This document shows, one piece after another, positions 5,748 through 52,005 of a DNA stretch of 64,000 nucleotides; position 1 is the stretch's first letter; each line of letters starts with the position of its first letter. The position numbers were made by a program, and so were the translations under genes. Location: the IMG/VR virus record IMGVR_UViG_2934563053_000002, positions 14,455 to 78,454 of that record, one strand, 5' to 3'. This DNA comes from a virus (lineage: Duplodnaviria > Caudoviricetes). The notes below the pieces were generated by a model. The model worked only from the letters and a program-made list of their open reading frames with translations, was not told the DNA's origin and did no database searches.

Positions 5748-6470
5748 ATGCCAAACCCCTGCCCCACCCCGGACAAGGTCCGCTACGCCACCCGAGCCGG
5801 CGCCGAGCAAGGCGCCCACCGCGCCCGGCTCCACTTCGACGACACCGTCTACCCGTATGCGTGCTCGTGCACGTGGTGGCACCTGTCCAAGAACCAGCCC
5901 GAGTCCACCCCGAGCCCGGAGGACGCGAGCCGTGCCGCCATCGAGCGGGTAGCCGCTCTCCCCAGCATCGCCTTCCGGGAGATCGTCGCCAACGACGCAG
6001 CCGGGAAGGGAGACCGTGATGAGCGTGGGGCACTGCGCGCTCCGGTGAACTTGACCCGTTGGCGTCGGGCGCTTGGCGAACTGCTGCACGACGTGCAAGA
6101 GCAACTGACGTCGAGCCGCTGGAACAAGACGTTGGCCGCGCAGGACTGGCGGAAGCGGGCGACCGGCTACCAGGAGCAGCTGCTGCGACGGCAGGTGGAG
6201 TGCAAGCAGCTGCGGGCGGATGCGCACGCGGTGGGTGTGTCGAGCCGTGTGGCGTCGCGGCGGCGTGTGGTGGATGCGGCTCGGTTGTCGGGCGCTCCGG
6301 TGAAGGAGTTGCGGCGGCTGGCTGGCGAGATGGCGGTGGATCGGCTGATCGAGGCTCATCGGGGCGAGTTCGATGGACTGCTGGCTGAGGAGTACGCCGC
6401 GGTGGATCTGCCGCTGCCGGAGGGCGTCATGCAGCGGATGACGGAGGCGGAAGTGGGAGCGGCGTCGTGA
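5748..6470 (+). CDS. Hypothetical protein with N-terminal CPTPDK..Y.C.C.WWHL zinc-binding motif
   Basis: Motif and GAGGA RBS. Confidence 0.7.
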   Translation: MPNPCPTPDKVRYATRAGAEQGAHRARLHFDDTVYPYACSCTWWHLSKNQPESTPSPEDASRAAIERVAALPSIAFREIVANDAAGKGDRDERGALRAPVNLTRWRRALGELLHDVQEQLTSSRWNKTLAAQDWRKRATGYQEQLLRRQVECKQLRADAHAVGVSSRVASRRRVVDAARLSGAPVKELRRLAGEMAVDRLIEAHRGEFDGLLAEEYAAVDLPLPEGVMQRMTEAEVGAAS

Positions 6471-6919
6471 GCCTGCGCCTCGTGCCGGTCCGCTTCCGCC
6501 AGGCCCAAGCGTTCTGTGCGATGTGGCACCGGCACCATCCGGCGCCCCGCGGCATGGTCTTTGCCGTCGGTGTCGCCGATCAGCACGGTGTGCTTCGCGG
6601 TGTCGTTGTCGTCGGCCGGCCCGTCGCCCGGCACCTGGACAACGGGCAGACGCTGGAGGTCACCCGCACCGTCACGGACGGCACGGTCAATGCCAACTCG
6701 ATGCTGTACGGCGCGGCGACAAGGGCGGCATGGGCGCTGGGCTACACCCGGTTGATCACGTACACGCAGGCGGGAGAGAACGGTGCGAGCCTGCGCGCGG
6801 CCGGGTGGCGCGTGCTCGCTAAGCGGCCTGCCACCCCGGGCTGGGACCGGCCGTCCCGCCCGCGTGAGCCCCGCGGTACGGAGCACATGCCGCGAACGCT
6901 GTGGGAGGCCGCCTCATGA
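6467..6919 (+). CDS. XF1762 family (Mom-like GNAT fold) protein
   Basis: HRHH, GVVVVGRPVARHLD, LEVTR, NANSMLYGA, LITYT..ENGASLRAAGW. Confidence 0.8.
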   Translation: MSLRLVPVRFRQAQAFCAMWHRHHPAPRGMVFAVGVADQHGVLRGVVVVGRPVARHLDNGQTLEVTRTVTDGTVNANSMLYGAATRAAWALGYTRLITYTQAGENGASLRAAGWRVLAKRPATPGWDRPSRPREPRGTEHMPRTLWEAAS

Positions 6920-7188
6920 CGTCCCGCCGCTGTGCCGGTTGCGGGCGCGCGTTGCGGGATCCGGTGTCGGTCTCGGCCGGTATGGGTCCGGTGTGTCGGC
7001 GTGCGGTCCGCGGGCCGGAGCCGCTGCGGATGCATGAAGGGGTGGTTCCTGCGGTGTCCGGCCAGCTCGAACTACCGGGCTGCGGTGAACTGCCAGCCAC
7101 CTCCCCGCTCAACCACCGTCGTGTCCGCCGCCGCGGGCCGACCGTCGACCTGCCCGACATCGCCAACTACCCCGGAGGACTCTCATGA
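6916..7188 (+). CDS. DUF6011-like zinc-finger protein
   Basis: CAGCGRALRDPVS...GMGPVC. Confidence 0.75.
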   Translation: MTSRRCAGCGRALRDPVSVSAGMGPVCRRAVRGPEPLRMHEGVVPAVSGQLELPGCGELPATSPLNHRRVRRRGPTVDLPDIANYPGGLS

Positions 7189-7466
7189 CCGCCGTCCCAA
7201 CGGAGCCGTTCCTGTCCGTTGCCGTGCGCTGCTTCGTCGTCGGTGCTGTCGGCACTGCGGTGGTGAACGCGGTGTGGTGGCTGATGGCCGGTGGGCCGAT
7301 GCCGCCGTGGGCGTCGCTCGTCACGTCGATGGTGGTGATGGCTGCTGTTGGTCGGGTGGCTGCGTATCGGCGTGAGCGTGCGTGGCGGCGGGTGATCGCC
7401 GCCTATGACTTGCCGTCGTTCGGTGCGGATTGCGGGGACACGCCCGGTCGTCCGCCTGCTGTCTGA
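7185..7466 (+). CDS. Small membrane protein
   Basis: Two hydrophobic segments, GGAGG RBS. Confidence 0.6.
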   Translation: MTAVPTEPFLSVAVRCFVVGAVGTAVVNAVWWLMAGGPMPPWASLVTSMVVMAAVGRVAAYRRERAWRRVIAAYDLPSFGADCGDTPGRPPAV

Positions 7467-7521
7467 TCCCTTTCGTTTGCCCGGTCGCCGTGCGCGGCCG
7501 GGCCCACCCCCGGAGAACCTG

Positions 7522-8211
7522 ATGACCGAGCCCAACAGTGCTGCGCTCCTCGCTAGTAGCTGCGATGCCTGCCAGCACACTCTCAACTGGCACCGCAACG
7601 ACGTCGGCTGCACCGTCCCTCGCTGCGCTTGTGGACGCTTCCAGCCCAGCATCCCCGAGACGCCTGCTGTGCGCCCGCGGGACGGCCGTACAGGCGCTCC
7701 GGCGTCTCCGTGCCCGCCGGACGCCCCGAGCGGGCCGCAGACGGGCGCACAGGACCGCGAGGCCCCAACTCATCCCGCCCGCCTCCGCGCTGTGGTGCTG
7801 TCCGCTCTCGCCGGCTGCGGTGTGCAGGTGCCCGCCGCGCGTGCGCAGGCCGCTGCGGAGACCGTGCTCGTGCACCTGGCCGACGCGCAGCAGCCCGGCG
7901 GCGGCGCAGTCCGCGTCACCACCGGCAGCAGCGAACGCCGCGACCGGTACGCGGCAGCAGTCCGCCGCCTCCACGAGACCGGCGGCCTCTACGCCCTCGA
8001 CGCAGGCGAGGACACCCGCATCGCCGACGCCGTGACGCCCGTGGCCGACGCCGAGCAGCACGCGGTGTACCGGCTGCTCGCCGAGTCCCGCACCCGCGAA
8101 ACCCGCCTGCGGGACGCACTCCAGCGCATCGACTCCAACATCGCGAACGGCGGGGCATCCGACGGTCTCCTGATCCGCTCCATCCGAGACATCACAAGGA
8201 GTGCACTGTGA
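7522..8211 (+). CDS. Hypothetical protein
   Basis: GGAG RBS; N-terminal CxxCxH..H..C..CxC. Confidence 0.6.
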   Translation: MTEPNSAALLASSCDACQHTLNWHRNDVGCTVPRCACGRFQPSIPETPAVRPRDGRTGAPASPCPPDAPSGPQTGAQDREAPTHPARLRAVVLSALAGCGVQVPAARAQAAAETVLVHLADAQQPGGGAVRVTTGSSERRDRYAAAVRRLHETGGLYALDAGEDTRIADAVTPVADAEQHAVYRLLAESRTRETRLRDALQRIDSNIANGGASDGLLIRSIRDITRSAL

Positions 8212-8609
8212 CCACCGACGAACGACGCAAGCGGTTCCGCACGGCGGTGTACCAGGCCATCGAGCGAGGAGACGACCCCGCCGACGCCGCCAAGGCCGTA
8301 TCCGACCAGGCGCAGCACGAGACGGTGACACGCCTCCGCGACGAGCGTGACCGGGCCATCCGCATCGCCGTGGCCCTGGAGAACCAGCTCGCCGCCGTGC
8401 AGGAGTACGCGCGGCACAGCGACGACACCGCACCCCGCACCCGCGAAACCATCCTCCGCCTCACCGACGGCTACCAGCCCGACGCCAGCGCCCCACAGCA
8501 CCTCGCCCGCGGCAGCAACGCCGAGAAGTGCCCCGCATGCGTGAGCACCAGACGGTCGTATGTGCCCCTCCTCCTCTGCCCCGGACCCGACGACGGAGCC
8601 GCATCGTGA
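8208..8609 (+). CDS. Hypothetical protein
   Basis: AGGAG RBS, GTGA overlaps; NAEKCPAC..LLCPG. Confidence 0.6.
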   Translation: MTTDERRKRFRTAVYQAIERGDDPADAAKAVSDQAQHETVTRLRDERDRAIRIAVALENQLAAVQEYARHSDDTAPRTRETILRLTDGYQPDASAPQHLARGSNAEKCPACVSTRRSYVPLLLCPGPDDGAAS

Positions 8610-9055
8610 CCGTGTCCCGGGAACTAAGCGAAACCGAACTGGCAGTCCTCCGCAGAACCGCGGACGGCGACACCTACAGCGAGATCGGCCACCACATCAA
8701 CCTCACCACCAAGAGCGTGGCGAACGTAGCCACCCGCGTCATGCGCAAACTCGGCGCGGTCAGCATGCCCCACGCCGTCTACCTCGCCACCCGCACCGGA
8801 CTCCTCGACGCCCCCCTCGACAACCCCCTGACCGCCCGGCAGCTCGAAGCGCTCCTTTGGACCGCCCTCGGCTACACCGCGCAACACGCCGCCGACCACA
8901 TGGGCGTGTCCCTCGACACCGTCCGCTGGCTCCTCCGCACAACCCACCACCGGCTCGGCGCCCGCACCGCCACCCACGCCGTCGCCCTCGCCATGGCCGC
9001 CGGCCTCATCACCCCAGCCCACATCACCACCCGGCGACAGGAACACGCCGCATGA
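8606..9055 (+). CDS. Tandem LuxR-type HTH regulator (no receiver domain)
   Basis: Two LuxR HTH repeats: LSETELAVL..G.T..EIG..KLGA..HAV and LTARQLEAL..G....A..MGVSLDTV..RLGA..HAV. Confidence 0.85.
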   Translation: MTVSRELSETELAVLRRTADGDTYSEIGHHINLTTKSVANVATRVMRKLGAVSMPHAVYLATRTGLLDAPLDNPLTARQLEALLWTALGYTAQHAADHMGVSLDTVRWLLRTTHHRLGARTATHAVALAMAAGLITPAHITTRRQEHAA

Positions 9056-10152
9056 CCAGCACCCCGCTCGCCCAGACCCGGGTTGAGCCCAGCCGGGCTC
9101 TCATCCGCGCGCTGCAACACCAGATCGAGCAGCTCGCCGACAGCATCTCCGGCAAAAACGCCCACCGCACCGCAGCCGGCTGGGTGTACATGACCTGCGT
9201 CCACGCCTGGGCCGCCGACCACCACCTCATCGACGGCCGCCTCCACCGCGACGCGCAGCCCGCGCGGCAGCAGTTCCTCACCCAAGGCGGCACCAACCTC
9301 GCCTGGCTCACCTACGCCGTCGCCGACACCGCCGTCCACCCCTGCGCCTGGACACTCCTCGACCCCGCCTACGACAACCCCGTCCGCCACGCCTCACCCA
9401 GCGACACCGCCGCCAGCCGCCTACTCGACTGGTGGGCCGAGGACGCCCCCGCCCTCGCCTACCCCGTCGACACTGGGCCCGGCACGATCACCGGCTGGAT
9501 CCTCGGCGACCTCCTCCAACTCGTCACCGACGAACGCCGTCTCGCCCACGCCCTCGCCCAATCCCCCTGGTGGCTCGCCGACGGCATCCTCGACCGCACC
9601 CTCATCCCCGCCGCCCGCGACTTCCGCGACGAGACGCTCCGCCTGATAGACCCCACCTGCGGCACCGGCCACTTCCTCATACGCGCCATCGACATGCTCT
9701 GGGAGCTGCACACCACCGGCAGTCTCGCCCCGCGGCAGATGCGCATGGACGGCGTCACCAGCTGGACCCCCATACCCCCCGCCGAGGCGGCCCGCCGCAT
9801 CCTCGCCGGCGTCGACGGCATCGAACTCGACCCCATCACGGAGGCGGTGTGTCGCCTGCGCGTCACCGTCTACCTCGCGCACCTGCTGCACGAGGCCGGC
9901 GCCCTGCCCGGACCGCTGCGCCTGGACGCGATACCGCACCGGCTGATGCCCCGGATCAGCGTCGGCGACAGCCTCCTCGCGGGGAAGGTGTCCCGTGCCG
10001 AGTACGCCCGGCTGCGCCCTGCCCAAGCCCGCATCGTCAACCTCGGCACCGACGCACCCGCAGATGGCGAGGCTCCGGACGGGGAGACGGCCCCGATCCC
10101 CGTCGTGCTCCCCCAGGGCACCGAGCGCGAACAACTCGCGCTCTTCTCCTGA
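9052..10152 (+). CDS. PglX (BREX-2)-like N6-adenine methyltransferase N-terminal fragment, lacking catalytic NPPY
   Basis: Motif I LIDPTCGTGHFL, GIELDP, VGDSLL; upstream motifs resemble PglX (WVYMT..ADHHLI, LLDPAYDNP, ILGDLLQ, LAQSPWW..ILDRTL); no NPPY/DPPY. Confidence 0.7.
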   Translation: MTSTPLAQTRVEPSRALIRALQHQIEQLADSISGKNAHRTAAGWVYMTCVHAWAADHHLIDGRLHRDAQPARQQFLTQGGTNLAWLTYAVADTAVHPCAWTLLDPAYDNPVRHASPSDTAASRLLDWWAEDAPALAYPVDTGPGTITGWILGDLLQLVTDERRLAHALAQSPWWLADGILDRTLIPAARDFRDETLRLIDPTCGTGHFLIRAIDMLWELHTTGSLAPRQMRMDGVTSWTPIPPAEAARRILAGVDGIELDPITEAVCRLRVTVYLAHLLHEAGALPGPLRLDAIPHRLMPRISVGDSLLAGKVSRAEYARLRPAQARIVNLGTDAPADGEAPDGETAPIPVVLPQGTEREQLALFS

Positions 10153-10160
10153 CCCCCTCC

Positions 10161-10235
10161 GCCCGAGTCGCGCAACCGGAAGACGCACCCGCCTTAAAAG
10201 CGGACCCAGTGCCGGTTCGAATCCGGCCTCGGGCA
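10161..10235 (+). tRNA. tRNA-Leu, anticodon UAA (decodes TTA; bldA-equivalent), short variable loop, no encoded CCA
   Basis: Acceptor GCCCGAG/CTCGGGC with discriminator A; D arm GCG..GG..CGC; anticodon loop CT-TAA-AA (10193-10199); T arm GCCGG-TTCGAAT-CCGGC. Confidence 0.88.
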
Positions 10236-10263
10236 CAACCCACACGACGCTGAAGGGAACCCG

Positions 10264-10863
10264 ATGAACAACCCCGGCCCGAGCCCCGACTGCGGCGAGG
10301 GATGGGCCTTCGCCCGACGAGTACTCACCGACCCCGCCCGGCAGCGCGAGACGCTCGCCAGCCTCGACCGGGCTCTCGACGGCATCACGCCGACCCCTGT
10401 CCCCGACACCTTCCGCGCCCGCCAAGGAGCAGCCATGACCGACCCCACCGTGACCGACCTGCTGCGCGAGCTGTACGAGTACGCGGGGCACGGCTACCAC
10501 TGCGACAACGTGGCCCCCGAGACAGCCCAGACCTACGAGGAATGGCTGTCCGACACGGCCCACGACCGGCCCGCCGTAGCCGCCGCCAAACAGGCAGCGC
10601 GCGCCCAGCAGCCCCCGCCACCCGGTTCGACCCGCGAGCAGCTCCCCGACCACCTCCTCGCACTCATCGACGTGCCGCCGTACACCAGCACCGCATGTGA
10701 GACGGCCCACGAGTGCGAGCGCGTAGTCGACGTCCACACCGAGCACGCCGAGGAACTCCGGACAGCGGCGGCCGGCCAGCTTCACGACCGGTGCCGCCGT
10801 AACAACAAGTTCACCGGCGTCACCTGCGGCTGCGCCTGCCACCAGGCGAAGGAGCAGCCGTGA
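10264..10863 (+). CDS. Hypothetical protein (alternative start 10435)
   Basis: YTSTAC...CRRNNKFTG..C.C.CH; internal GGAG RBS. Confidence 0.6.
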   Translation: MNNPGPSPDCGEGWAFARRVLTDPARQRETLASLDRALDGITPTPVPDTFRARQGAAMTDPTVTDLLRELYEYAGHGYHCDNVAPETAQTYEEWLSDTAHDRPAVAAAKQAARAQQPPPPGSTREQLPDHLLALIDVPPYTSTACETAHECERVVDVHTEHAEELRTAAAGQLHDRCRRNNKFTGVTCGCACHQAKEQP

Positions 10864-11000
10864 CCCGCGTCTACCGGTGGCTGACCACCCCAGTCGCCGT
10901 GCCCCGCTGGGTACGCATCGGGGTCCTCACCGCATCCGCCTTGCAATGCGCCGCCTGGCTACTCCAAGGGGCGACCTGGGCCCTCGCCCACCTCACCCGC

Positions 11001-11043
11001 TGACCCCCTGCCCGGCCGTTGGGGTCGGCCGGGCAGGGGGTCA
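11001..11043. terminator. Perfect 18-bp hairpin ending the early operon
   Basis: TGACCCCCTGCCCGGCCG-7nt-CGGCCGGGCAGGGGGTCA. Confidence 0.75.
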
Positions 11044-11295
11044 CGGTTCAATAACGGAAGATTTGGCCGTGAGCGCGTGAAAGCGTAGGCAGCCCGTACT
11101 CAGAGCGTAGCCACAACACGCAACAGACCTCAGTTGGCCGAAGCCCTGACGCAGACCACCACGTCGAGCCCGCAGGCGAGCGATATGCTGCTCCTGCTTG
11201 ATCTCCCTCGCACCAACTTGCCGCCCAGCGCTGTAAGTCGGCGGCGGCGAGCCCCCGGCCAACCACCGGGAGGTTCACCGAGGGAGGGAGAGCAC

Positions 11296-11427
11296 ATGGA
11301 CGATGAAGAAATGGGCATGCCGCCGGAGCCGCCGTGGAGCAGCTTCGAGCGGTGGTCGATCATCCTCGCGATGTTAGGCGTGCTCATGGCAACCATCTCC
11401 GTGGTGGCGCAGTTCGCGATGCGGTAA
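11296..11427 (+). CDS. Small single-TM peptide containing a TTA codon
   Basis: GGAGGGAG RBS; 43 aa; hydrophobic WSIILAMLGVLMATISVVA; TTA at 11374; hairpin terminator at about 11515-11551. Confidence 0.6.
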   Translation: MDDEEMGMPPEPPWSSFERWSIILAMLGVLMATISVVAQFAMR

Positions 11428-11697
11428 CCCACCGCACGCCCGGGAGCGACCGACAGCCGCTGCACACGCAGCGAGCCCGGTCTCTTGATAGGCGACCGGG
11501 CCCGTGAACTGCAAGAAGGGCCTGTCCTGGTGCCCGCCAGGCGGGCCCTTCGCCATGCCCAGCGTTCAAGGACTGTGCTACCCGTACTTGCTCGCGAGCA
11601 TGTACCCAGACCATAGCACGGGCATTTGTGGGAATCATGAAAACAGTAAGCGAAAGCCGCAGGTCAGAACCACCGAACATCCCACCGGCTGGGCCGC

Positions 11698-13074
11698 TCA
11701 AGCTGGCAGGTTCCCGGCGAGGTACTCCATCGCGCGCTCATCCAGCTCTGCCGCACACCGCAACCCCCGAGCCCGGAACCGGCCCAAATCCCGCCGCATA
11801 CCCCGCACCGCCTTCACCGTCCGCGCCGACCGCACACCCTCCATGTGATCCAGGGCCTGATGCCACGTCGCGCACGCCTGCTCGATCCCACCCCGCTTGA
11901 GCTGCATCTCCGCACTCGCCACCAGATCGAGCGCCACGATCCGCGCATACGTCCCGGACGGCCGCGCGCCGGCCGCCCGGCCGTACTGCTCAGCCGCCGC
12001 CCGGTGATCGCCCAACGTCTCGTGGACCTTCGCCGCCCGCGAATACACCGACGCAGCCGGCGGCCCCCACGCCATACCCCAGAACGGCACCTCATCGCCA
12101 GGCGCGTCCTCCAGCATGCGACGCGCCCGCTCGGCCTCGACCAGTGCTGTGCGCCGCTGGCCGGACTTCGCCAGCGTGTGGGCGTGGACGATGCGGAACA
12201 GCGCCTCCGTCCGCGAGTCGACCCGCCCCTTGGCCCGGTTCAGTCCCGTCTCCGCCAGCCCAAGACAGTGCTCCGGCCGACGCAACTTCAGCCCCTGCAT
12301 CGCCATCGTCCGCATCACGAACCCGTCATGCCCGACCAGCCCGGACTCCTCGGCGAGCCTGAACGACTGAAGGTAGTACCGCTGCGCAACACCCTGCTGC
12401 CCGGCGTCATACGCCTTCCAGCCCAGCAGATGCACACCACGGGAAGCCGCAGACAGCATCTGCTGGCGCGCCTCCTCAGTGCGGAACCGGGCCCGGCACA
12501 ACGGCGCCACATCGTCCCGCAGATACTGCACGAGCGCCGTCCGACCGTGCTGCCCACCATGCCGCTCGTCCATATCCGAGAACATGCCGATCATGTCGCG
12601 GACCGCGGCGACCTCGACCATGCCGACAACAGTGCCGGAGCGCGCCGCGACCGTGCGCTCCGCGGCGTCTCTCACGGAGGCCAGCGGGAGAGCAGCGGCG
12701 GCCACCGAGTAGGCGGACGATGCGAGGAGGCGGCGTCGGTCCACTTCGTTCCTCCACAGCGGTAGCAGCACATCGATCGGATCGGGCCCCAACGTGAGTC
12801 CGACGTCCTCATCCTCCTCCGGCCAGTCGAGGCCGATATCGGCCGGGGCCAGCAGCCGGCCCAGCAGCCGAGACAAGGCCACCGCCAAGTACCGGGCCGT
12901 CATAGCCGACGGGAGGGTCCCGGCGACCCAGTGCGCGATCGCTGACTTGTTCGTCCGCAGATGGTCCCCGCACTCGGCAGCCACGGCGCGTACCGCGCGA
13001 GCCACCGCATCGTAGGGCAGACCGGACTCCTCAATGACGTCTCTGAGCTGGGTGTTCGGCTTCCGCGTGGTCAT
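11698..13074 (-). CDS. Large Streptomyces-type transcriptional regulator (N-terminal HTH, C-terminal TPR-like helices)
   Basis: RKPNTQL..LRTNKSAIAHW..G..P, DRRRLL, DERHGG, LGWKAYDAG..AQRYY. Confidence 0.85.
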   Translation of the reverse strand: MTTRKPNTQLRDVIEESGLPYDAVARAVRAVAAECGDHLRTNKSAIAHWVAGTLPSAMTARYLAVALSRLLGRLLAPADIGLDWPEEDEDVGLTLGPDPIDVLLPLWRNEVDRRRLLASSAYSVAAAALPLASVRDAAERTVAARSGTVVGMVEVAAVRDMIGMFSDMDERHGGQHGRTALVQYLRDDVAPLCRARFRTEEARQQMLSAASRGVHLLGWKAYDAGQQGVAQRYYLQSFRLAEESGLVGHDGFVMRTMAMQGLKLRRPEHCLGLAETGLNRAKGRVDSRTEALFRIVHAHTLAKSGQRRTALVEAERARRMLEDAPGDEVPFWGMAWGPPAASVYSRAAKVHETLGDHRAAAEQYGRAAGARPSGTYARIVALDLVASAEMQLKRGGIEQACATWHQALDHMEGVRSARTVKAVRGMRRDLGRFRARGLRCAAELDERAMEYLAGNLPA

Positions 13075-13204
13075 GCAGCTCCTGCCGTTAAACCGGATAA
13101 ACCACGTGCCCGCTCGTAACCGTACCCACGGACAGCCCACGGGAGTTCACTGTTCGTCAGGCCCCCGCACCAGCGGGTGGCGCAACCTCAGGGAGGGAAC
13201 ACCC

Positions 13205-13525: not shown

Positions 13526-14494
13526 ATGCCTGCTTCTGTCGCGATCATCACCCGTGATCAGGACACAGCCGCCGACCTCGTCGTCCACGAACTACGCAAG
13601 CGCGACGCGGTCATCTACCGGTTCGACCTGGCCGACTTCCCCACCCGGATGACCCAGGCCGCCTACCTGATCCCCGGCCGCGCCCGCTGGACCGGAGCGC
13701 TCAAGGGGCAGCACCGCGACGTGGACCTCTCCGGACTGACAGCCGTCTGGTACCGCAAACCGTCCACCTTCCGGCTGCACCAGGGCATGTCTGCGACAGA
13801 GCAGGAGTGGGCGGCCACCGAAGCCCGAGCCGGCTTCGGTGGCCAGCTCGCCGCCCTCCCAGGCGTCCGCTGGATCAACCACCCGCACCGCAACGCCGAG
13901 GCCGACCACAAGCCGCTCCAGCTCGCCCGCGCCGACGCCTGCGGACTCGCCGTCCCCGAGTCGCTGCTGACCAACGACCCCGACGCAGCCCGCGCGTTCT
14001 GCCACGCGCACCACGACACCGGGGTGATCTACAAACCGCTGCATGGTGGCCCCGCAAACGAGAACGGCCAGCCAGTCGCCCTCTGGGCAACCAGCGTCAC
14101 CGCCGACGACATCACCGACGGAGTGGCCCGCAGCAGCCACCTCTTCCAGGCTCGGATCCCCTGCGCCTACGCGGTCCGACTCACCGTCGTCGGCGAGCAG
14201 ATGTTCGCTGTCCGTATCGACGCCCCCGAGGACTCCGCAGCCGTCGACTGGCGACAGGATCACGACCAGCTCCGCTACACCCCCATCGACGTGCCCGACG
14301 ATGTGGCCGCGGGGACGCGCCAACTCTTGCAGTCCTTCGGCCTCACCTACGCAGCCATCGACTGGGTCGTGACCCCCGACGGCCAGTGGACGTTTATCGG
14401 AGACCTGAACCCGAACGGGCAATGGGGCTGGATCCAGGCGCACACGGGCCTGCCGATCGCCGCTGCCATCGCCGACGAACTCGCCCGGGAGTAG
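13526..14494 (+). CDS. ATP-grasp ribosomal peptide maturase (graspetide synthetase)
   Basis: D.TADLVV, RFDLADFP, AVWYRKP, WINHP..AD.KPLQL, LLTNDP, IYKPL, HLFQ, DWRQD, DLNPNGQWGW. Confidence 0.93.
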   Translation: MPASVAIITRDQDTAADLVVHELRKRDAVIYRFDLADFPTRMTQAAYLIPGRARWTGALKGQHRDVDLSGLTAVWYRKPSTFRLHQGMSATEQEWAATEARAGFGGQLAALPGVRWINHPHRNAEADHKPLQLARADACGLAVPESLLTNDPDAARAFCHAHHDTGVIYKPLHGGPANENGQPVALWATSVTADDITDGVARSSHLFQARIPCAYAVRLTVVGEQMFAVRIDAPEDSAAVDWRQDHDQLRYTPIDVPDDVAAGTRQLLQSFGLTYAAIDWVVTPDGQWTFIGDLNPNGQWGWIQAHTGLPIAAAIADELARE

Positions 14495-27144: not shown

Positions 27145-28698
27145 GTGACCGACACCGCGGCCCGCACCCGCGGCCAATACCTAGCCGGGCACACGGCCGA
27201 AACCTTCGACCTCCACGCCTACCTCGCACAGCACCCCGACCGGCTCCTGGAGGAGCCGGAAGGCCGCCGCGTGCTCACCCGCCTGGACCCGCTGCTGTTC
27301 GGGCTGCTCTACCTCCGCCACCACCTCAAGGACAGCGAAGGTGCGATCACGTTCTCCGACGCGCACCTCGACTGGTGCCGCGCCGCCCGCGACTGGGTCC
27401 GCCCCGTCACCGCGCCGGGCGCCGAGCGGGACGCGTGGGTCGCGCCGCGGAACACCGGCAAGAGCACATGGTGGTTCTTGATCCTGCCGATGTGGGCCGC
27501 CGCCCACGGACACGTGAAGTTCACCGCCGCGTTCGCCTCGTCGGCGACGCAGGCGGAGACACACCTCGGCACGTTCAAGCGGGAGGTCGACACCAACGCG
27601 GCGCTCCGCCGCGACTACCCCGAACTGTGCAAGCCCGCCAAGCGGCCCTCCGGTGCGAACGTCGGCGACACCCAGTCGATCTACATCGCGTCGTCGGGCT
27701 TCGTGTTCGCGGGCAAGGGCATCGACTCCAGCAACCTCGGCATGAAGGTCGGCGAGATCCGGCCCGACCTCATCCTGTGCGACGACATCGAACCGGACGA
27801 GGCGTCGTACTCGGTCGACTTGGCGGCGAAGCGGCGGTCGACGCTGATCGATTCGATCCTGCCGCTCAACGTGTATGCCCGGGTGGTCATCTCGGGCACC
27901 GTCACGATGCCGGGCAGCATCGTGCACCAGCTCGTGAAGCACGGCCGCGGCGTGGAGACCGCGGACTGGGTGCGGGAGGAGGGGTTCCGCGCGCACTACA
28001 GTGCGCCGATCGTGCGGCGGGACGATGGCACCGAGCGGTCACTGTGGCCGGCGAAGTGGCCGCTCGCCTACCTGAAGTCGATCGAGCACACGCGGTCGTT
28101 CGCGAAGAACTATGCCAACGACCCGCTCGGCTCCGACGGCGACCTGTGGACAGTGGACGACTTCCGCTACCCGGGCGCCGACGGGCCGGACCCGGTCACG
28201 CACATGATGCTCAGCATCGACCCCGCGGTCACCACGAAGAAGGGCTCGGACTTCACGGGGCTGGCCGTCGTGAGCTGGTCGGCGGAGCGGCGGCGCTGCA
28301 CGGTGTGGGACGCGCAGGCCGTGAAGATCCCACCCGGCCCCGCGTTGCGGGAGAAGGTGTTGGCCCTGCTCGACGAGTACCCGCAGATCGGTCTCGTCCT
28401 GGTGGAGGTCAACCAGGGCGGCGACGTCTGGCAGGCGATCTTGCATCACCTACCAGTGCGGTTGAAGACCATCGCGCAGGCCGAGAAGAAGTTCACCCGC
28501 GCCGAGGCCGTACTCAACGACTACCAGCGCGGAAGGGTCATCCACGCGCGGAAGCTCCGCGAGTTGGAGGAGCAGATGTGCGCCTTCCCCAAGGCCCCGC
28601 ATGACGACCTCGTCGATGCTGCCGGGTCGGGAGTGAGAAGATTCCTCCCCACCAAACCGAAGCAGGTTTCGAAGGCGTCAAGCGCCAGTTACCTTTGA
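27145..28698 (+). CDS. terL: Terminase large subunit
   Basis: APRNTGKST, RPDLILCDDIE, SIDPA..SDFTG, VEVNQGG, FP...HDDLVDA. Confidence 0.93.
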   Translation: MTDTAARTRGQYLAGHTAETFDLHAYLAQHPDRLLEEPEGRRVLTRLDPLLFGLLYLRHHLKDSEGAITFSDAHLDWCRAARDWVRPVTAPGAERDAWVAPRNTGKSTWWFLILPMWAAAHGHVKFTAAFASSATQAETHLGTFKREVDTNAALRRDYPELCKPAKRPSGANVGDTQSIYIASSGFVFAGKGIDSSNLGMKVGEIRPDLILCDDIEPDEASYSVDLAAKRRSTLIDSILPLNVYARVVISGTVTMPGSIVHQLVKHGRGVETADWVREEGFRAHYSAPIVRRDDGTERSLWPAKWPLAYLKSIEHTRSFAKNYANDPLGSDGDLWTVDDFRYPGADGPDPVTHMMLSIDPAVTTKKGSDFTGLAVVSWSAERRRCTVWDAQAVKIPPGPALREKVLALLDEYPQIGLVLVEVNQGGDVWQAILHHLPVRLKTIAQAEKKFTRAEAVLNDYQRGRVIHARKLRELEEQMCAFPKAPHDDLVDAAGSGVRRFLPTKPKQVSKASSASYL

Positions 28699-28746: not shown

Positions 28747-30297
28747 GTGGGCTCACCAGACCTCATGCACGGCATAGCCGAACTCGAAGCCGCTCGCGCC
28801 CCCTACGTCGAAGCCGAGAACATGTACCGCGGCACCGTCGAGGAGGTCTTCGCTTCCGCCCGCCTCCAACGCGCGCTGGAGCAGTCCGGCATCAACTTCC
28901 GGCTGAACTTCGCCAAGACCCCCGTCAACGCCGTCGTGGACCGCTTGGAGATCGCGTCGATCACCGGGACCGACGACGCACACACACGGCTGATCAGCCA
29001 GGTGTGGAAAGACAACGAACTAGACCTCGAAGCTCCAGACCTCCACCGGAAGGCGTGCTACTTCGGCGACGCCTACCTAATCGAAGTCCCAGTCGAGGAC
29101 GACAACGGCCAGGTCATCGGCGTCGAGATGCACTACAACTCGCCGCTCACCGTGCGGGCCATCTACTCGCAGGAGAACCCCCGCGTCGTCGACTACTACA
29201 TCAAGCACTGGACCGAGCGCACCAGCCTCGGCCAGATCCAGCGAGCCGAGCTGTACTACGACGACCGCACCGAACGCTGGACCACCAAGCCCGGCGCGAA
29301 AGGCGAGCAAGCGGCCGACTGGGTGCACTGGACCGCGGCCCCCGAGGACGACGAACCCGAGGACGAGGACTCGTGGACAATCCCGAACCCCCACGGGCAG
29401 ATGGTCTTCCACTTCCGCACCGAGCGCCCATTCGGAGTCCCCGAGCACTTCGACGCCTACGGCCCGCAGAACGCGATCAACAAGCTGGCCATCTCCCAGA
29501 TGTCGACCATCGACTTCCAGATCGCACCCCAGCGCTACGCCATCACGGACTCCGCCACCACCGACACCAGCGATGTGGAGCCCGGAGACTTCGACGACTT
29601 CCCCCCAGACGATGCCACCGACGGGCCCACCGACACCGGCGACGACTCCAGCCTCAAGGCCGGGCCTGGAGAAGTGTGGCTGCTCCGCGGCTATAAGGCG
29701 GTCGGCCAGCTCGACCCGGCGAAACCCGAGGTGTTCCTGAACCCGTTGACGTTCGAGGTCCGCGCCATGTCGCAGATCACCACCACCCCCCTGTACCTCT
29801 TCGACACCGAGGGCGGGCAGGAGATCAGCGGCGAGTCGCGGCGACAGAAGGACGCCGCGTTCGTCAAGAAGATCCGCAACCGGCAGATGTCGTTCGGCGC
29901 GACCTGGCGGGCAGTGTTCACCTTCGCGCTCAAGCTCCTCGGCTACCCCGACGCCACAGTCGACGTGCGCTGGGCGCCTGCCGCCACCGTCGAGGACAAG
30001 ACCGGGTGGGAGACCACCGGCCTCAAGGTCGAGAACGGAGTGCCCCGGCGGCAGGCTCTGCTGGAGGCGGGCTACCGGGAGGAGCAGGTCGACGACTGGC
30101 TTACTGGTGTGGACGAGGCCGAGCTGGAGCGCCGCGTCACGATCCTCGCCACTTTGGCGGACAGCGCCCAGAAGCTCGGCAGCGCGGCTGCGCTCGGCGT
30201 CGTCACCACCGGCCAGGTCCAGGGCTTGCTGGCCGGGGCGCTGTCCGATGTGGAGCTGCTGGCGCCGGAGACGGAGACGGAGACGGCTGATGCCTGA
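28747..30297 (+). CDS. Portal protein (SPP1 gp6-like)
   Basis: Position; NFAKTPVNAVVDRL, YFGDAYL, QNAINK, PQRY, SGESRR. Confidence 0.88.
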   Translation: MGSPDLMHGIAELEAARAPYVEAENMYRGTVEEVFASARLQRALEQSGINFRLNFAKTPVNAVVDRLEIASITGTDDAHTRLISQVWKDNELDLEAPDLHRKACYFGDAYLIEVPVEDDNGQVIGVEMHYNSPLTVRAIYSQENPRVVDYYIKHWTERTSLGQIQRAELYYDDRTERWTTKPGAKGEQAADWVHWTAAPEDDEPEDEDSWTIPNPHGQMVFHFRTERPFGVPEHFDAYGPQNAINKLAISQMSTIDFQIAPQRYAITDSATTDTSDVEPGDFDDFPPDDATDGPTDTGDDSSLKAGPGEVWLLRGYKAVGQLDPAKPEVFLNPLTFEVRAMSQITTTPLYLFDTEGGQEISGESRRQKDAAFVKKIRNRQMSFGATWRAVFTFALKLLGYPDATVDVRWAPAATVEDKTGWETTGLKVENGVPRRQALLEAGYREEQVDDWLTGVDEAELERRVTILATLADSAQKLGSAAALGVVTTGQVQGLLAGALSDVELLAPETETETADA

Positions 30298-32111: not shown

Positions 32112-32247
32112 CAACCCGAGGTATATTCATCACTAGGTGAATTGATTCGGTGATCGAATCAGGACACCGCCCGATCTTGCGAAGGCGCCCGTGATGGGGC
32201 CCGAGCCTCAACCGCTTGTCCCCATCACACGCCCGCAGGAGGGCACC

Positions 32248-33165
32248 GTGGCACGCAACACCTTCGAGTCCTGGATCCCGGAAGAGTACGACTCCCAGGT
32301 CATCCAGCGCGTCACCCAGATGTCCGCGGTCGAGGCGCTCGCCTCCCCGGTACCGATGTCGTCCGACTCCAAGTCGATCCCGCGGTCCGCGGGCGTCGGC
32401 GTCAGCCTCGTCGACAAGGGCGGCGCCTACTCCGAGGACACGTCCTCCAACGACGACATCACCCTGACGGCCAAGAAGTTCGGCAAGGCCATCCGCATCG
32501 CCGAGGAGGACATCGACGACTCCCTCGCGAACATCATCTCGACCAAGCAGGTCGACTGGGCCACGTCATACGCCAAGTTCATCGACAACGCCACCCTGGC
32601 GGTCAACGCCGCGCCGGGCTCGGGCGTGCCGTTCACCTCGGTGTACTACCAGCTCACGCAGGCCGCCTCCGGTCTCGGGTACGGCGCCAACGACAACGTG
32701 ACCGTAGCCGCCTCTGCGGGCGTCACCTACGACGACCTGTCCGACGTGATGTCCGCCGTCGAGGGCGGCGACTACTTCGACCTGTCCCGCACCGTCGTCA
32801 TCGCGCACCCCTCCTTCCGCGGCACCCTGCGGAAGATCAAGGACGACCAGAGCATGCCCGTCTTCGTCCGCGGCCAGCAGGGCGACGCCGGCAGCCCCGA
32901 CACCCTGTTCGACCTGCCGGTCCAGTGGAGCCTCGGCGCGAAGGCACACGCCACCGCGACGGACGCACCCACGGGTGCACCGCTGCTGTTCGTCATCAAC
33001 CGCGACTTCCTCCGGCTCGGCATCCGGTCCGGCCCCGAGAGCATCTTCATCGACGGCCGCGACGGACTGTCCGCGCTGACGGACGAGTCGATCCTCAAGA
33101 TGCGCTCGCGCAGGGGCTTCGCCCTCGGCCACCCCAAGGCCGCGGCTGTCCTGGTCGGTGTCTGA
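32248..33165 (+). CDS. Major capsid protein (HK97 fold)
   Basis: WIPEEY..VIQ, ITLTAKKF, LRKIKD, TLFDLPV, RRGFAL; AGGAGG RBS. Confidence 0.9.
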   Translation: MARNTFESWIPEEYDSQVIQRVTQMSAVEALASPVPMSSDSKSIPRSAGVGVSLVDKGGAYSEDTSSNDDITLTAKKFGKAIRIAEEDIDDSLANIISTKQVDWATSYAKFIDNATLAVNAAPGSGVPFTSVYYQLTQAASGLGYGANDNVTVAASAGVTYDDLSDVMSAVEGGDYFDLSRTVVIAHPSFRGTLRKIKDDQSMPVFVRGQQGDAGSPDTLFDLPVQWSLGAKAHATATDAPTGAPLLFVINRDFLRLGIRSGPESIFIDGRDGLSALTDESILKMRSRRGFALGHPKAAAVLVGV

Positions 33166-36839: not shown

Positions 36840-39800
36840 ATGTCGTTCCTCGTCGCCGACGGACACGTCGAAGTCACCGCCAAGACGGGCGACGCCGAGC
36901 GCGACATCCGCAACCTCGTCACCCAGATGCAGGGCCTCGGCCCCGCAGCACAGGCAGCCTCCAACGGGTTGAAGGACCTCCGCAACCGGGCCGCTGCTGG
37001 GGGGGCCGCGCTCGGTGCCATGGGGCGGCAGGCCAAGGACGCGGAGAAGGCCCTCATCCGGCTCAAGGCGTCGGCCGGCGACATCCGGGTCAGTGCGACG
37101 CTGGCGGACGAGACCCGCACCGGCGTCACCGCAGTCAAAGCGGCGCTCCGCGACCTCAAGGCCGAATCCCCGGTGCGGCTGTCCGCCAGGATGGACGACG
37201 ACACCACCAGCAGCATCACCCGCGTCCGTGCCGCCATCCGCGACCTGAAGGCCGAGTCGCCGGTACGTCTCTCCGCGCGGCTGGAAGCGGAGAGCACCGC
37301 CAGCGTCGCCACGATGCGCGCCGCCATCCGGGCGCTGAAAGCGGAGTCCCCGATCCGCCTGGCTGCACGCGTGGAGACCGAGGGCACGGCAAGCGTCACC
37401 TCCCTGCGCGCAGCGATCCGCGACCTCAAAGCGCAGTCCCCGATCCGGCTGTCCGCCAGGCTGGACACCGAGGGGGCCGCCCGGGTCGCCGCCCTGCGCG
37501 CCGCTGTCCGTGATCTCAAGGCTCAGTCACCCATCCAGCTCACGGCCCGCGTGGACGACAGCACGGGCAGCAGTCTGGCCCGCGTGCTCGCCTCGGTCCG
37601 CTCCCTCAAAGGCGAGTCGCCGATCAGGCTGCGTACCGAGGTGGACAGCGACACTGCGGGCATCGCGGCGACACGGCGGGCGCTTCGCGATCTGCGGGCT
37701 GCGAGCCCTGTCCGTATCCGGGCGACCTTCGATGGGGACGGGGCGGCCATCGTCTCCACCGCCCGGGCGGTGGGCAGCCTCCGGGATCGGGCCGAGGCCA
37801 CCAGCCGCGCTCTGACCGCCCTCGCGACGCGGTCTGCCGCGGCTGCCGCCGCCCTGCACGCCGTGAAGGAAGCGGCGCAGGAGGCGGGCCGTGCGCTGCG
37901 GACTCTCCGTGGCAGGGCCCAGGCTGCCGCGGACGCGATGGGTAACCTGCGCACCAGCTCTGTTGCTGCGGCTGCCGCGCTCCGCGCCATCAACACCGCC
38001 ACCCGCAACGCCAATACGCGCCTCGGCACCCTCGGCGACAGCACCCGCACCCTGCGCCGAGACCTGGACGACCTCGACGGGAGCCTCACCCGCGTCGGCG
38101 GCAGCCTCAACGGGCTGCGGGGACGGCTGGGCAGCCTCAGCGGATCGAGTGGCCGCGTGAACCGCCTCTCGGCGGCGCTGCTCTCTCTGGCTACCGCGGC
38201 GATTCCGGTGGCGGCGTCGCTGGCTCCGATCGTGCCGCTGGCCCTGTCGGCGGGCACGGCGATGGGCGTGCTGGGTGTGGCGGCGGCCGGGCAGATCGTG
38301 CACCTCGCGCACGCCTCGGAGGCCGAGAGCAAGTACCAGGACGCCGTGAAGGAGCATGGCCGCACTTCGGCGGAGGCGGCGCAGGCGTCGGCCGACTACG
38401 CCCGCGTGGTCGAGCAGATGCCCGCCCCCACACGGCAGGCCGCCGCCGCGTTCAGTTCCCTCAAGGACCAGTACAAGAGCTGGTCGGATGCGCTGGCGGG
38501 CGACACCATGCCCGTCTTCACCCGCGGGTTGGAGACTCTGAGCGGCACGCTGCCGAAGATCTCGCCGCTGGCACGGACTGCGAGCGACGGCTTGCAGCGG
38601 CTCATCACGATCGCTGCCGGGGGAATCGAGAGCCCCGGCTTCGACCAGTTGATCAGCAAGGTGGACGCGTTGGCGGGGACGGCGCTGCGCCGGGCGACGG
38701 ACGGATTGTTGACGTTCATCCGTAGCGCGCAGACCGGCAGTGTCGGCGGCGGCGTGAGCAGCTTCATGGACTATGCGCGGGCCCACGGGCCGTTGGCCGG
38801 GGAGACCATGCGCAACCTGGGGCAGGTCCTCCTCAAGCTGCTGGAGGCGGCGTCGGACGTGGGCGTGGGCATGCTGACGGTGGTCAACGCGTTCGCGTCG
38901 CTGGCCAGCTCGGTGCCGACAGGACTGATCAGCAACCTGTTGCAGGTGTACGCCGCGTTCAAGCTGATCAAGCTGGCGGCTGTCGGTATGACCGCGGTCA
39001 ACGCGGGCGTCGCCGCGATGGTCACCCAGATCACGGCTATGCGCACGGCGGCGGCTGGGGCGGCGACCCGCATGGCGGGGCTGCGCGCAGCGATGGCGGC
39101 GATCCCCGCGGGTGGCCAGCTTGCTCTGGCTGCGGCTGCGGCGGCGGTGTTGACGGTCGGTGTCTCGAAGCTGATCAGCAAGATGGACGAGGCGCCGCCG
39201 AGCGCGGAGCGCCTGTCCCGGTCGATGATTGCGTTCGCGCGTAGCGGGAAGATCGGCGGCGAAGCAGCGAGAGTCTTCGGCAAGGACCTGGGCGGGTTCG
39301 GGGACGCGGTCGCCCGCATCGCTCACCCCGCGGTGACCGAGCGTCTGAAAGACGTGGGCCACGAACTCGTCACGTTGGGCTTCGGTACGGAGCACAGTCT
39401 CGACAAGGCGCAGAAGGCCACCAAGAGCGTCGACAAGGCGCTGGCTGACCTGGTGTCCAAGGGGCACTCCGACATCGCGGCGACGGCGTTCCAGCGGTAT
39501 GCGGCTGCCGCGGAGAAGGGCGGCACGTCGACCGCCAAGCTCCGTGGGATGCTGCCGAAGTACAAGGAGGCGCTGGCCAACGCGAAGGCCGAGCAGGAGC
39601 TGGTGGCCCAGAGCATGGGCCTGTTCGGTGCGCAGGCCCTCAAGACCAAGTCGAAGCTGGATGCGCAGAAGGCGTCGGCTGACGGGCTGCGGCAGGCGAT
39701 CCAGGCCCTCAACGACGTGAACCGCGCTGGGCTCGGCGGGATGATCGCGTTCGAGCAGGCCATTGACGACGCCGCCAAGGCAGCGAAGAAGTCCGCGGGC

Positions 39801-48862: not shown

Positions 48863-49050
48863 GCTGCGGTCCTCTCTTCTGCAATCCACCACCACGCGGT
48901 GGGTTCGATGATCGGTTCGTCATCGGCCTGGTCGAACCACGAGTCGAGACAGACCTGGCACACCACGACCGTGTTTCCTGCCGCGGTGCGGATGAGGGCC
49001 ACGGGCTCGGTGCAGGACGCAAGTGCACAGTGGCAGGTGCTCACGTTCAC
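48859..49050 (-). CDS. Small Cys-rich protein
   Basis: CHC...C, CQVCLD.WFD.ADD; flanked by 19-bp direct repeats. Confidence 0.55.
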   Translation of the reverse strand: MNVSTCHCALASCTEPVALIRTAAGNTVVVCQVCLDSWFDQADDEPIIEPTAWWWIAEERTAA

Positions 49051-51379: not shown

Positions 51380-52005
51380 GCGGAGGTCTCCTTGGTGTCG
51401 GGCCTGTGGTCTGTCTCGTCGTAGATGACGACGTGGAACTGGTCGGGTAGGTCGTCGGGGTCGCCGCCTCGCATGCGGTGGATCTCCCGCAGGAGTGCCT
51501 TCACCTGGTTGCGGTAGGCAGCGGAGTCGTGCTCGGCGATGGCCGCTCGGATCTCTGCACCACGCACGCGAGCCTCGCCAGGGGACACGAACTCCATGGG
51601 GGCTGCGTCCTCGAACTCCGGGCCGACCTTGCACCATGCGCAGTTCAGCACCTTGTGGCCGCACGTGCTGACGTCCTTGTACACCTCGTGGTTGTCCCGA
51701 TCCGGGGCAGCGAGGTCGGCGTCGTCGAGGTCGCCTGCTGCGCCGATGGGCGAGGAAGTCACGGCGCCGCAGGGGCAGACGGCGTTCTGCTCGGGCTTGC
51801 CGTGTGTGACGGTGAACCAGCAGCCTGCCGGGTCGGTGTGCATGTCCCACCCGTGCTCGCATGAGGGGCACCGGTCGGTGGCGGTGGCCTCTTCGGTGGG
51901 CAGTGCTTCGCGGATGCGCCGGAGCGCGGTCTCAGCAGTCCATACCCGGTCGCGGAGTTTCTCGTCTTCGGTCTGCTCGGGTGACGGCTCGGCCATGTCT
52001 GCCAT
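51376..52005 (-). CDS. Hypothetical Cys-rich protein
   Basis: GGGAG RBS; overlaps epimerase start. Confidence 0.6.
   Translation of the reverse strand: MADMAEPSPEQTEDEKLRDRVWTAETALRRIREALPTEEATATDRCPSCEHGWDMHTDPAGCWFTVTHGKPEQNAVCPCGAVTSSPIGAAGDLDDADLAAPDRDNHEVYKDVSTCGHKVLNCAWCKVGPEFEDAAPMEFVSPGEARVRGAEIRAAIAEHDSAAYRNQVKALLREIHRMRGGDPDDLPDQFHVVIYDETDHRPDTKETSA

Follow-up and report, generated by a model that had tools for sequence, protein, structure and literature searches.

The closest described relatives of the protein reported here are the PglX (BrxX) methyltransferases of the bacteriophage exclusion (BREX) defence systems, above all that of BREX type 2 (BREX-2), also called Pgl, for phage growth limitation. 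The N-terminal helical bundle of BrxX/PglX resembles the N-terminal domain of M.EcoKI, is conserved in BREX-1, BREX-5 and BREX-6 as well as in BREX-2, and has been proposed as an interface for other BREX components (PMC12839542). BrxB, BrxC, PglX and PglZ co-purify, albeit unstably (PMC13326643), and in Streptomyces coelicolor, where the NPPY motif of PglX occupies residues 378-381, PglX is toxic without PglZ, which is a genetic interaction (PMC4365076). BREX defence needs S-adenosylmethionine (SAM), as work with T3 SAM lyase indicates (10.1101/2023.02.27.530186), and for BREX-2/Pgl opinions differ on which DNA receives the mark, that of the host or that of the phage (PMC12839542). Here we describe P0001, a 366-residue PglX-N-like protein encoded at 9052..10152 (+) of a 64,000-nucleotide stretch of actinobacterial prophage DNA. 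This stretch, hereafter the window, covers bases 14455-78454 of the 78,454-bp record IMGVR_UViG_2934563053_000002, which IMG/VR classes as a provirus and CheckV rates as 87% complete. Judging from sequence, P0001 and its relatives appear to be defence-subunit mimics on mobile elements with an unprecedented putative tether to the beta sliding clamp. We tentatively propose, with a probability of about 0.35, that P0001 is a mimic of PglX with no catalytic function, which probably sits on the host sliding clamp and would poison BREX-2/Pgl.

The original prediction, made from the letters alone, had aligned P0001 with a consensus of the PglX N terminus, and profile searches confirmed that the likeness is real and specific to BREX-2. 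The PADLOC PglX profile PDLC02529 matched at E 1.2e-31 (residues 32-317 on profile positions 56-328 of 1189) and the NCBIfam model BREX_2_MTaseX NF033451 at E 1.9e-29 (102.1 bits, residues 35-317 on 54-324 of 1185), whereas the PglX models of BREX-1 and BREX-6 gave only 1e-4 and 8e-5, respectively, and BREX-5 gave 1e-4 or worse. The score lies far below the curated 400-bit cut-off of NF033451 because only about a quarter of the model is covered, with no end-to-end match, and a profile search of the whole record returned the same single partial NF033451 match. Pfam was almost blind to the protein (MmeI_Mtase, E 0.013, below cut-off). A phmmer search of 1.84 billion representatives gave 460 matches at E<=1e-3, of which the 10 at E<=1e-30 belonged to the protein's own family; the next tier, starting at E ~2e-18, consisted of PglX proteins of ~1150-1440 residues aligned at residues ~65-340, plus fragments of them. 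Over the matched stretch P0001 is ~35-40% identical to full-length PglX. The two share colinear blocks in the N-terminal domain (AWV..T..V....ED..L; HPA...L.D; L..(F/W)W; GDL(Y/L)Q.L....R...AL.Q(T/S)P.(F/W); ..ILD.TL.PA) and in SAM motifs I (DP(T/A)CG(S/T)GHF), II (G(V/I)(D/E)(I/L)(N/D)P) and III (GDSLL), where the likeness stops, and P0001 has two family-specific insertions after motif I.

We set 52 family members against the N-termini of 39 full-length PglX proteins. In 42 columns both groups have the same residue at a conservation of at least 80%; motifs I-III account for 20 of these, and the helical domain, motif X included, for 22. A further 41 columns are at least 90% conserved in the short family but unlike the PglX majority, at sites that are fixed differently or variable in PglX; examples, with the PglX residue in brackets, are L155 (Y, 100%), G148 (T, 100%), T205 (S, 100%), D260 (N, 100%) and A52 (R, 100%). 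On these alignments the P0001 family keeps the PglX scaffold and SAM contacts, yet it has systematically diverged at some PglX-invariant sites.

The catalytic part of PglX is missing from P0001. It had been noted at the outset that the protein has motif I, ends shortly after VGDSLL and carries neither an NPPY-type motif nor a target-recognition domain (TRD), and both pattern scan and alignments agree. The pattern [ND]PP[YFW] occurs nowhere in the whole protein. NPPY was present in 10/10 full-length PglX proteins checked, 47-65 residues past GDSL/GDAL in the seven where both motifs were found; P0001 stops 61 residues past GDSL, and its residues in that part show no alignment to the NPPY block. 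It has neither motif IV (NPPY) nor strands 4-7; compared with the features of NF033451, it has the helical N-terminal domain and motif I and lacks NPPY, the target-recognition domain and the C-terminal domains. An ordinary active orphan N6-adenine methyltransferase, with core motifs I-VIII and (D/N)PP(Y/F/W), is excluded as an explanation: P0001 has three strands, motifs X and I-III only, and no complete core.

AlphaFold2, run with a 103-sequence alignment, gave a model with a predicted local distance difference test score (pLDDT) of 91.4 and a predicted template modelling score of 0.88. It comprises helices at residues 15-190 (pLDDT mostly >90), strands at 198-200, 254-258 and 301-304 together with their helices, and two short helices at 315-328; past residue ~340 the pLDDT drops from 95 to 53-45, and it is <50 at 352-366. 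P0001 is thus modelled as a confident compact fold with a disordered tail. Among 103 sequences D200, P201, G204 and G206 are invariant, and D260 and D306 are at least 90% conserved. The best Foldseek matches of the model in the PDB were MmeI, DrdV, Salmonella PglX (8c45, 8q56) and E. coli BrxX (9ewz). With VIA-align, residues 7-353 of the model superposed on 1-534 of BrxX 9ewz_C (278 residues, Z 12.5), the model superposed on PglX 8q56_A with Z 12.2, and its SAM-binding half superposed on CamA bound to S-adenosylhomocysteine (7lt5_A) with Z 14.3 and a root-mean-square deviation of 2.7 Å over 137 residues.

We also found that the disordered tail ends in a pentapeptide, QLALF, which the original prediction had overlooked and which changes the likely mechanism. 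The consensus for binding the beta clamp is QL(S/D)LF, QLDLF is reportedly the strongest binding peptide, and such motifs often lie in disordered C-terminal tails (PMC11139829). We counted tail motifs in the last 30 residues of 108 relatives (30-40 residues for the strict form), taking expectations from shuffled tails. The strict form QL.LF occurred in 32/108 against 0.06 expected, Q[LMIVPA].[LM]F in 46/108 against 0.28, and the relaxed form Q..[LMI][FL] in 60/108 against 2.7. The 32 strict tails divide into 17 QLDLF, 6 QLGLF, 3 QLSLF, 3 QLALF, 2 QLLLF and 1 QLPLF; among the 12 members on viral contigs, five have a strict motif, five a relaxed one and two none. Past GDSLL the family follows a common order, namely an 'EYA.L.P..A.IVNLG' segment, a variable Pro/Ala-rich stretch and, very often, QLxLF a few residues from the C-terminus. 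P0001 has the sequence features of a clamp client, that is, a QL[S/D]LF-like pentapeptide at a disordered terminus, kept while its flanks vary. The motif is beta-clamp-binding-like, and on this evidence P0001 probably docks on the clamp.

The 108 relatives came from a search limited to proteins of 201-641 residues. Nearly all are 310-480 residues long and 43-73% identical to P0001; an NPPY-like motif is present in only one (P0086) and a GDSL-type motif III in 99. Their named sources are Streptomyces, Streptosporangium, Actinomadura and Sphaerisporangium, and among the named matches the family is confined to Actinomycetota. A search of 642-2000-residue proteins returned only two PglX proteins, at E ~1e-13, and no fused longer form of the short family was seen in it. 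The ESM Atlas cluster of P0001 has 92 members annotated 'hypothetical protein'. We collected 18 loci (46-88% identity, one genome per species) from Streptomyces, Spongiactinospora, Plantactinospora, Sphaerisporangium, Streptosporangium, Rugosimonospora, Glycomyces, Micromonospora, Phytohabitans, Dactylosporangium and Wenjunlia, plus metagenome-assembled genomes, and 12 loci with members (43-88% identity) in IMG/VR. Ratios of nonsynonymous to synonymous substitution rates (dN/dS, Nei-Gojobori) were 0.27-0.45 in eight pairs at 65-89% amino acid identity; a ninth pair (OWN-L004) gave 0.79 at saturating divergence and is not relied on. Strong bias in GC content at third codon positions (GC3) depresses dS, and the true constraint is therefore probably stronger. 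By this measure the family is under purifying selection, and truncated homologues of the same length recur, as the original prediction had wanted checked.

Two other short forms are related to P0001. A sister group of ~392-403 residues (L019, P0086, P0113, L077 and L078), 47% identical to P0001, keeps ANPPY and the next helix, stops before a 'Q.T.NSFMKREFG' block and then carries a linker like that of P0001; the terminal QLxLF is strict in L019, P0086, P0113 and L077 and relaxed in L078. Since the same tail is found on the 366- and ~396-residue forms, it is the tail that has been preserved across two truncation points, and not catalytic completeness. More distant are PglX-like methyltransferases of ~435 residues (loci L021-L061, e.g. 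L037 7902-9236, L030, L046 and L027), mostly from Streptomyces. These have a PglX-like N-terminal domain and a complete NPPY core up to the 'DTSGAYIPGHGTPT' block, without a TRD; they share the N-terminal domain and the motif I-III region with P0001 at 26-34% identity, and some of them (L026 and L050) end in Q..LF-like tails. Matches of this type occur in 6/401 sampled Streptomycetaceae genomes, and the ~435-residue form could be a mobile-element adenine methyltransferase that has no TRD and is tethered to the clamp. In L028, which is of this type, the open frame continues from upstream sequence resembling 3'-phosphoadenosine-5'-phosphosulfate (PAPS) reductase.

In a quick maximum-likelihood tree built from the ~310 N-terminal residues that the forms share (48 rows, rooted at the midpoint; P0114, P0164, P0192 and L030 were left out as the trimming motifs were not both found), the 366-residue, 396-residue, ~435-residue and full-length PglX proteins each fell on one side of a branch. 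The 366- and 396-residue groups are sisters, set apart from full-length PglX by a branch of length ~1 with a support of 100 in the Shimodaira-Hasegawa-like approximate likelihood ratio test (SH-aLRT), and the ~435-residue group forms a separate branch (SH-aLRT 99). The root is a midpoint only, and the tree therefore proves no direction of evolution.

The P0001 gene is phage-encoded, as had been supposed: the window contains a large terminase, portal, major head protein, tape measure and integrase (Table 1), and it is in the replication/recombination block of this siphovirus-like prophage that the gene lies. Upstream of it, and on the same strand, are genes for RecT, an exonuclease, a DpdA-like queuine tRNA-ribosyltransferase homologue, a DnaC-like loader and an HNH protein, and from this position we infer that P0001 is expressed early. 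P0001 is, as expected of a mimic, encoded by a mobile element, homologous to a defence subunit and without the active part. The closest relative (88% identity, from S. qinglanensis) shows synteny on both sides, and the same element is also an IMG/VR provirus. Ten further IMG/VR records with a member were probed for phage hallmarks: an HK97 capsid above cut-off was found in 6/10 and TerL (phrog_38) in one of the five records probed for it, that one having no capsid match, so that the two probes together gave a hallmark in 7/10. Near the gene in loci of the Streptomyces/Streptosporangiales type are YqaJ exonuclease, RecT, DUF5131, an RNA ligase that bears an intein, and a helicase. Loci of the Micromonosporaceae type have DUF4192, WhiB, DprA, a ComM-like ATPase, NlpC/P60, DUF2637 and a prepilin peptidase, a gene set that we take to be conjugative-element-like. 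The family is therefore probably carried on conjugative-element-like loci too, and not by phages alone. INPHARED phage reference genomes gave no megablast match to window positions 7000-12000 and no tblastn match to P0001; at these thresholds the family is not in cultured-phage records.

In the mechanism that we propose, the tail would dock P0001 on the host DnaN sliding clamp, and so on the replicating DNA of the element; the PglX-like body would compete with host PglX for PglZ, PglY or PglW (subunit poisoning); and the BREX-2 complex would then neither mark nor restrict the element's DNA. As the SAM-contact residues are conserved, the partner-binding conformation is perhaps the SAM-bound one. 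A bolder version, which seems to us unlikely, has an anciently diverged, dedicated 'dead PglX' of actinobacterial phages and conjugative elements travelling with the host replication clamp and, at the replication fork, poisoning the BREX-2/Pgl complex. Two parts of the original prediction did not survive. A recent capture of host pglX does not fit the ~35-40% identity, the long branch shared with the ~396-residue form or the 41 family-specific positions, and action as a SAM sink is implausible, because a stoichiometric binder cannot deplete the SAM pool as the enzymatic T3 SAM lyase does.

Several points weigh against an anti-Pgl role. The anti-defence activity and the binding to DnaN, SAM and Pgl proteins are predictions from sequence. 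The C-terminal region of BREX-1 PglX, which P0001 lacks, has been implicated in restriction coupling (PMC13326643). The 41 family-specific positions (e.g. GDLLQ for GDLYQ, and D260 for N) could mean a diverged interface and function. Twelve more of the 108 relatives end in an alternative motif, FPLxDFxW, and the partner of the tail may therefore not always be the clamp; another 36 have neither motif, some of them perhaps fragmentary calls. No conserved neighbouring gene ties the family to known anti-defence loci. Full-length BREX-2 PglX is found in 5/15 host genomes with a P0001-family gene (in one of them in four frame pieces), against 67/401 sampled Streptomycetaceae genomes (binomial p 0.09, with a base rate from a single family and a different family mix from that of the hosts). 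There is no clear enrichment, and co-residence neither supports nor refutes a decoy.

The serious competitor, which we consider possible though doubtful, is that P0001 has nothing to do with BREX and is instead a clamp-tethered accessory with which the element replicates, recombines or regulates its genes, or a protein that blocks clamp clients of the host. Its PglX-like body would then be an inherited scaffold, perhaps a SAM sensor, derived from the element-borne short PglX-like methyltransferases. This would agree with a gene lying amid RecT, an exonuclease and a DnaC-like loader here and near RecT, YqaJ and a helicase elsewhere, with a tail kept across two truncation points and present in Q..LF-like form on some ~435-residue methyltransferases, and with the 41 positions peculiar to the family. 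Mobile elements that use the clamp have precedents in insertion sequence transposases (PMC4549789) and in MuC of phage Mu (10.1101/2025.01.04.631326). Such an accessory leaves unexplained, however, why 42 columns in the N-terminal domain and SAM contacts are shared with PglX and why the best profile is specifically that of BREX-2 PglX, and no conserved replication partner stands beside the gene: nothing but the PglX-like family itself is common to the 18 loci, and the upstream neighbours at seven distant loci gave no PHROG match, so that no partner emerged.

The same lack of a conserved neighbour bears on the idea that P0001 is the SAM half of a split methyltransferase, with an element or host partner supplying motifs IV-VIII and DNA recognition for protective or epigenetic methylation. 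Motifs X, I, II and III show no or almost no variation, and the forms make a graded series from ~435 residues with a full core through ~396 with NPPY to 366. We nevertheless hold this to be improbable, as the provirus record contains no Eco57I-type catalytic methyltransferase domain and no second PglX-profile match, fused longer forms were not seen among the 642-2000-residue proteins, and AlphaFold2 gives a closed, confident fold and not an exposed half-sheet, which is indirect evidence. Slightly harder still to credit is a factor that benefits the lysogen through defence or superinfection exclusion, e.g. by redirecting or activating host BREX-2 against incoming DNA. The family is prophage- or island-borne, prophages are known in general to carry defence morons often, and host PglX looks intact in 4-5/15 genomes; but the gene lies in the replication block and not where a moron would sit, by the attachment site or the lysis genes, 10/15 hosts have no BREX-2 PglX, and P0001 has no effector domain. 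Least credible of all is a decaying, functionless pglX pseudogene fragment. P0001 does match no more than the leading ~27% of the PglX profile and breaks off at the expected place of NPPY, and a truncation unique to this genome would have suited decay; the 108 same-length relatives (down to 43% identity), dN/dS of 0.27-0.45, GC3 of 0.91, confident fold and conserved tail motif effectively refute it. The remaining probability belongs to something else.

The gene itself is intact, with 366 codons and a TGA and no internal stops. It was described beforehand as a translationally coupled open reading frame (ORF) with normal codon bias, and this holds: its ATG overlaps the TGA of the upstream ORF as ATGA, an AGGA stands a few bases 5', and the GC1/GC2/GC3 of its codons is 0.73/0.52/0.91 in sequence of 70% GC (GC3 is 0.925 in the terminase gene), a codon pattern that is that of real genes. 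The features of the locus and the phage hallmark genes are given in Table 1.

Table 1. Features of the P0001 gene, its neighbours and the phage hallmark genes, in window positions
Feature	Position	Strand	Evidence
Upstream double-helix-turn-helix (HTH) gene, 175 aa, two LuxR/GerE-type (sigma region-4-like) HTH domains	8528..9055	+	Pfam, PHROG
PglX-N-like gene (P0001): BREX-2 PglX helical N-terminal domain, SAM-binding methyltransferase half, disordered tail	9052..10152	+	profiles, AlphaFold2, alignments
aa 14-190, helical N-terminal domain, PglX/BrxX-bundle homologue, motif X-like AQSPWW (Q170, P172 conserved)	9091..9621	+	AlphaFold2, alignment
aa 191-312, first three strands of class-I methyltransferase fold, motifs I, II (GIELDP) and III	9622..9987	+	AlphaFold2, alignment
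Motif I, DPTCGTGHF, aa 200-208	9649-9675	+	sequence
Motif III, VGDSLL, aa 304-309	9961-9978	+	sequence
aa 313-360, helices with the family-specific 'EYA.L.P..A.IVNLG' segment (to ~aa 335), followed by a linker rich in Pro/Ala/Gly that varies in length and sequence	9988..10131	+	alignments
aa 361-365, QLALF, C-terminal beta-sliding-clamp-binding-like pentapeptide	10132..10146	+	sequence
tRNA, anticodon UAA (Leu), 76 nt, short variable loop, 9 nt past the P0001 stop	10161..10236	+	ARAGORN; Rfam RF00005, 49 bits at 10161-10235
199-aa ORF, Cys/His-rich C-terminus, same reading phase as the P0001 gene, GC3 0.875	10264..10863	+	sequence
Large terminase	27145-28698		
Portal	28747-30297		
Major head protein	32191-33165		
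Tape measure	36840-42077		
Integrase, reaching the record end; product also matches HNH endonuclease families at aa ~421-462	62603-64000	+

The 175-residue product of the upstream gene matched Pfam GerE (E 9.7e-17, in two stretches), HTH_23 and Sigma70_r4, and phrog_3282 'sigma factor' at E 6.6e-22; among the loci compared, this gene is not kept beside distant family members. The tRNA downstream is a neighbour of the P0001 gene; its UAA anticodon is the one for TTA, a codon that is rare in Streptomyces and depends on bldA. A tRNA-UAA lies directly 3' of the PglX-like gene in four Streptomycetaceae-type elements (besides this one, L003 9125-9199, L019 9139-9218 and 9248-9321 in two copies, and L077 11144-11220) and in 0/25 other loci scanned; in two of the four the PglX-like protein is only 46-47% identical. 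These tRNAs are 74-80 nt and therefore lack the long variable arm usual for tRNA-Leu. Rough gene calls place five TTA codons in the record, including codon 8 of a divergent tetratricopeptide repeat (TPR)/HTH regulator at 11698-13140. The 199-residue ORF beyond the tRNA had no Pfam or PHROG match and only a weak DpdE match (E 0.0095), and is kept only in the closest relative (87% match, L002/L003). We rejected the possibility that the tRNA was inserted into a longer gene, as this same-phase ORF has no methyltransferase similarity and the proteins of distant relatives stop at the same point with no tRNA behind them. A scan of 6000-11800 for promoters and terminators gave nothing that exceeded shuffles.

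As to other pgl genes, which were said to be lacking in the window, the statement stands for pglZ: the PglZ domain (PF08665) is absent from the 78,454-bp record and the neighbours of P0001 are phage genes, whereas pglW and pglY were not searched for separately. The record has no DnaN domain either, and with the Eco57I-type catalytic domain also missing it supplies no partner half, in favour of the mimic reading. In G417, a host with a short family member (contig 5, ~3003123-3006656), the profile match to the full-length BREX-2 pglX is broken into four successive pieces that lie in different frames (2-155, 148-225, 224-306 and 304-1183), and by its sequence the gene looks disrupted in exactly the N-terminal region. 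The DpdA-like homologue (L066 11504-12625, in record bases before the window; phrog_1279, E 2e-85) belongs to the same gene block as P0001 and suggests 7-deazaguanine DNA modification in this phage, which would be another anti-restriction device. Likely morons are a RimK-like ATP-grasp protein (phrog_2599) at 13526-14494 (+) and, on the opposite strand past the tail genes, a glycosyltransferase and a nucleotide-sugar epimerase at 49047-50060 (-) and 50414-51664 (-); these may serve cell-surface modification in the lysogen. The record may be cut inside or just after the integrase gene.

In conclusion, P0001 touches on how BREX stops phage replication and on the role of the universally conserved N-terminal domain of PglX. 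It is a natural probe of both, with the N-terminal domain, the SAM-binding half and a probable clamp tether only. If it inhibits Pgl, its binding partner would identify the docking site of PglX, and the clamp motif would place the conflict at replicating DNA. It would then be the first anti-BREX-2 factor and the first anti-BREX protein derived from a BREX subunit, the PglX N-terminal domain would be an assembly interface, and BREX would act at or near the replisome. Should the protein have no role against BREX, half a methyltransferase that binds SAM and is brought to the sliding clamp in more than 100 mobile-element lineages would still be an undescribed kind of clamp client. The full-text literature searched held no description of a PglX-derived inhibitor or of this family, apart from supplements, which may list truncated PglX homologues; the word 'truncated' does not occur in the main text of the BREX survey PMC12839542.

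Set beside the known systems, P0001 shares with PglX (NF033451; S. coelicolor SCO6627) a homologous helical N-terminal domain, motifs X, I, II and III and a range within Actinomycetota. It differs in covering only ~54-328 of the 1185 profile positions, in lacking NPPY, the catalytic remainder, the TRD, the C-terminal region and pgl neighbours, and in its added QLxLF tail. Like the clamp clients Pol II and Pol IV as well as Pol III alpha, it ends a disordered C-terminal tail in a pentapeptide; unlike P0001, whose binding is predicted from sequence, the clients named in that account include no methyltransferase-like protein (PMC11139829). The known anti-BREX factors are T7 Ocr, a DNA mimic that binds PglX (PMC7261183), T3 SAM lyase (10.1101/2023.02.27.530186), ICP1 OrbA, which binds BrxC (PMC11580459), and an archaeal virion protein active against type V; none addressing BREX-2 was found in those parts of the literature that the search covered. 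P0001 would target the same system as Ocr, SAM lyase and OrbA, and BREX has been shown to be vulnerable at its PglX/SAM axis, but P0001 is unrelated to them in sequence and principle, being neither a DNA mimic nor an enzyme nor a small inhibitor, and those three concern BREX-1. Nearest in concept are the viral cas genes that act as anti-CRISPRs (10.1101/2023.06.24.545427), which are likewise partial or inactive copies of a defence component on a mobile element. These counter CRISPR and not BREX-2, inhibition by P0001 is a proposal, and its clamp-like tail is not known to have a counterpart in them. With them belongs AcrIB4, proposed to replace Cas11 by 'subunit poisoning' (10.1101/2025.06.06.658234), and if P0001 acts as we suggest, the principle of a viral copy of a defence subunit serving as inhibitor would extend from CRISPR to BREX.

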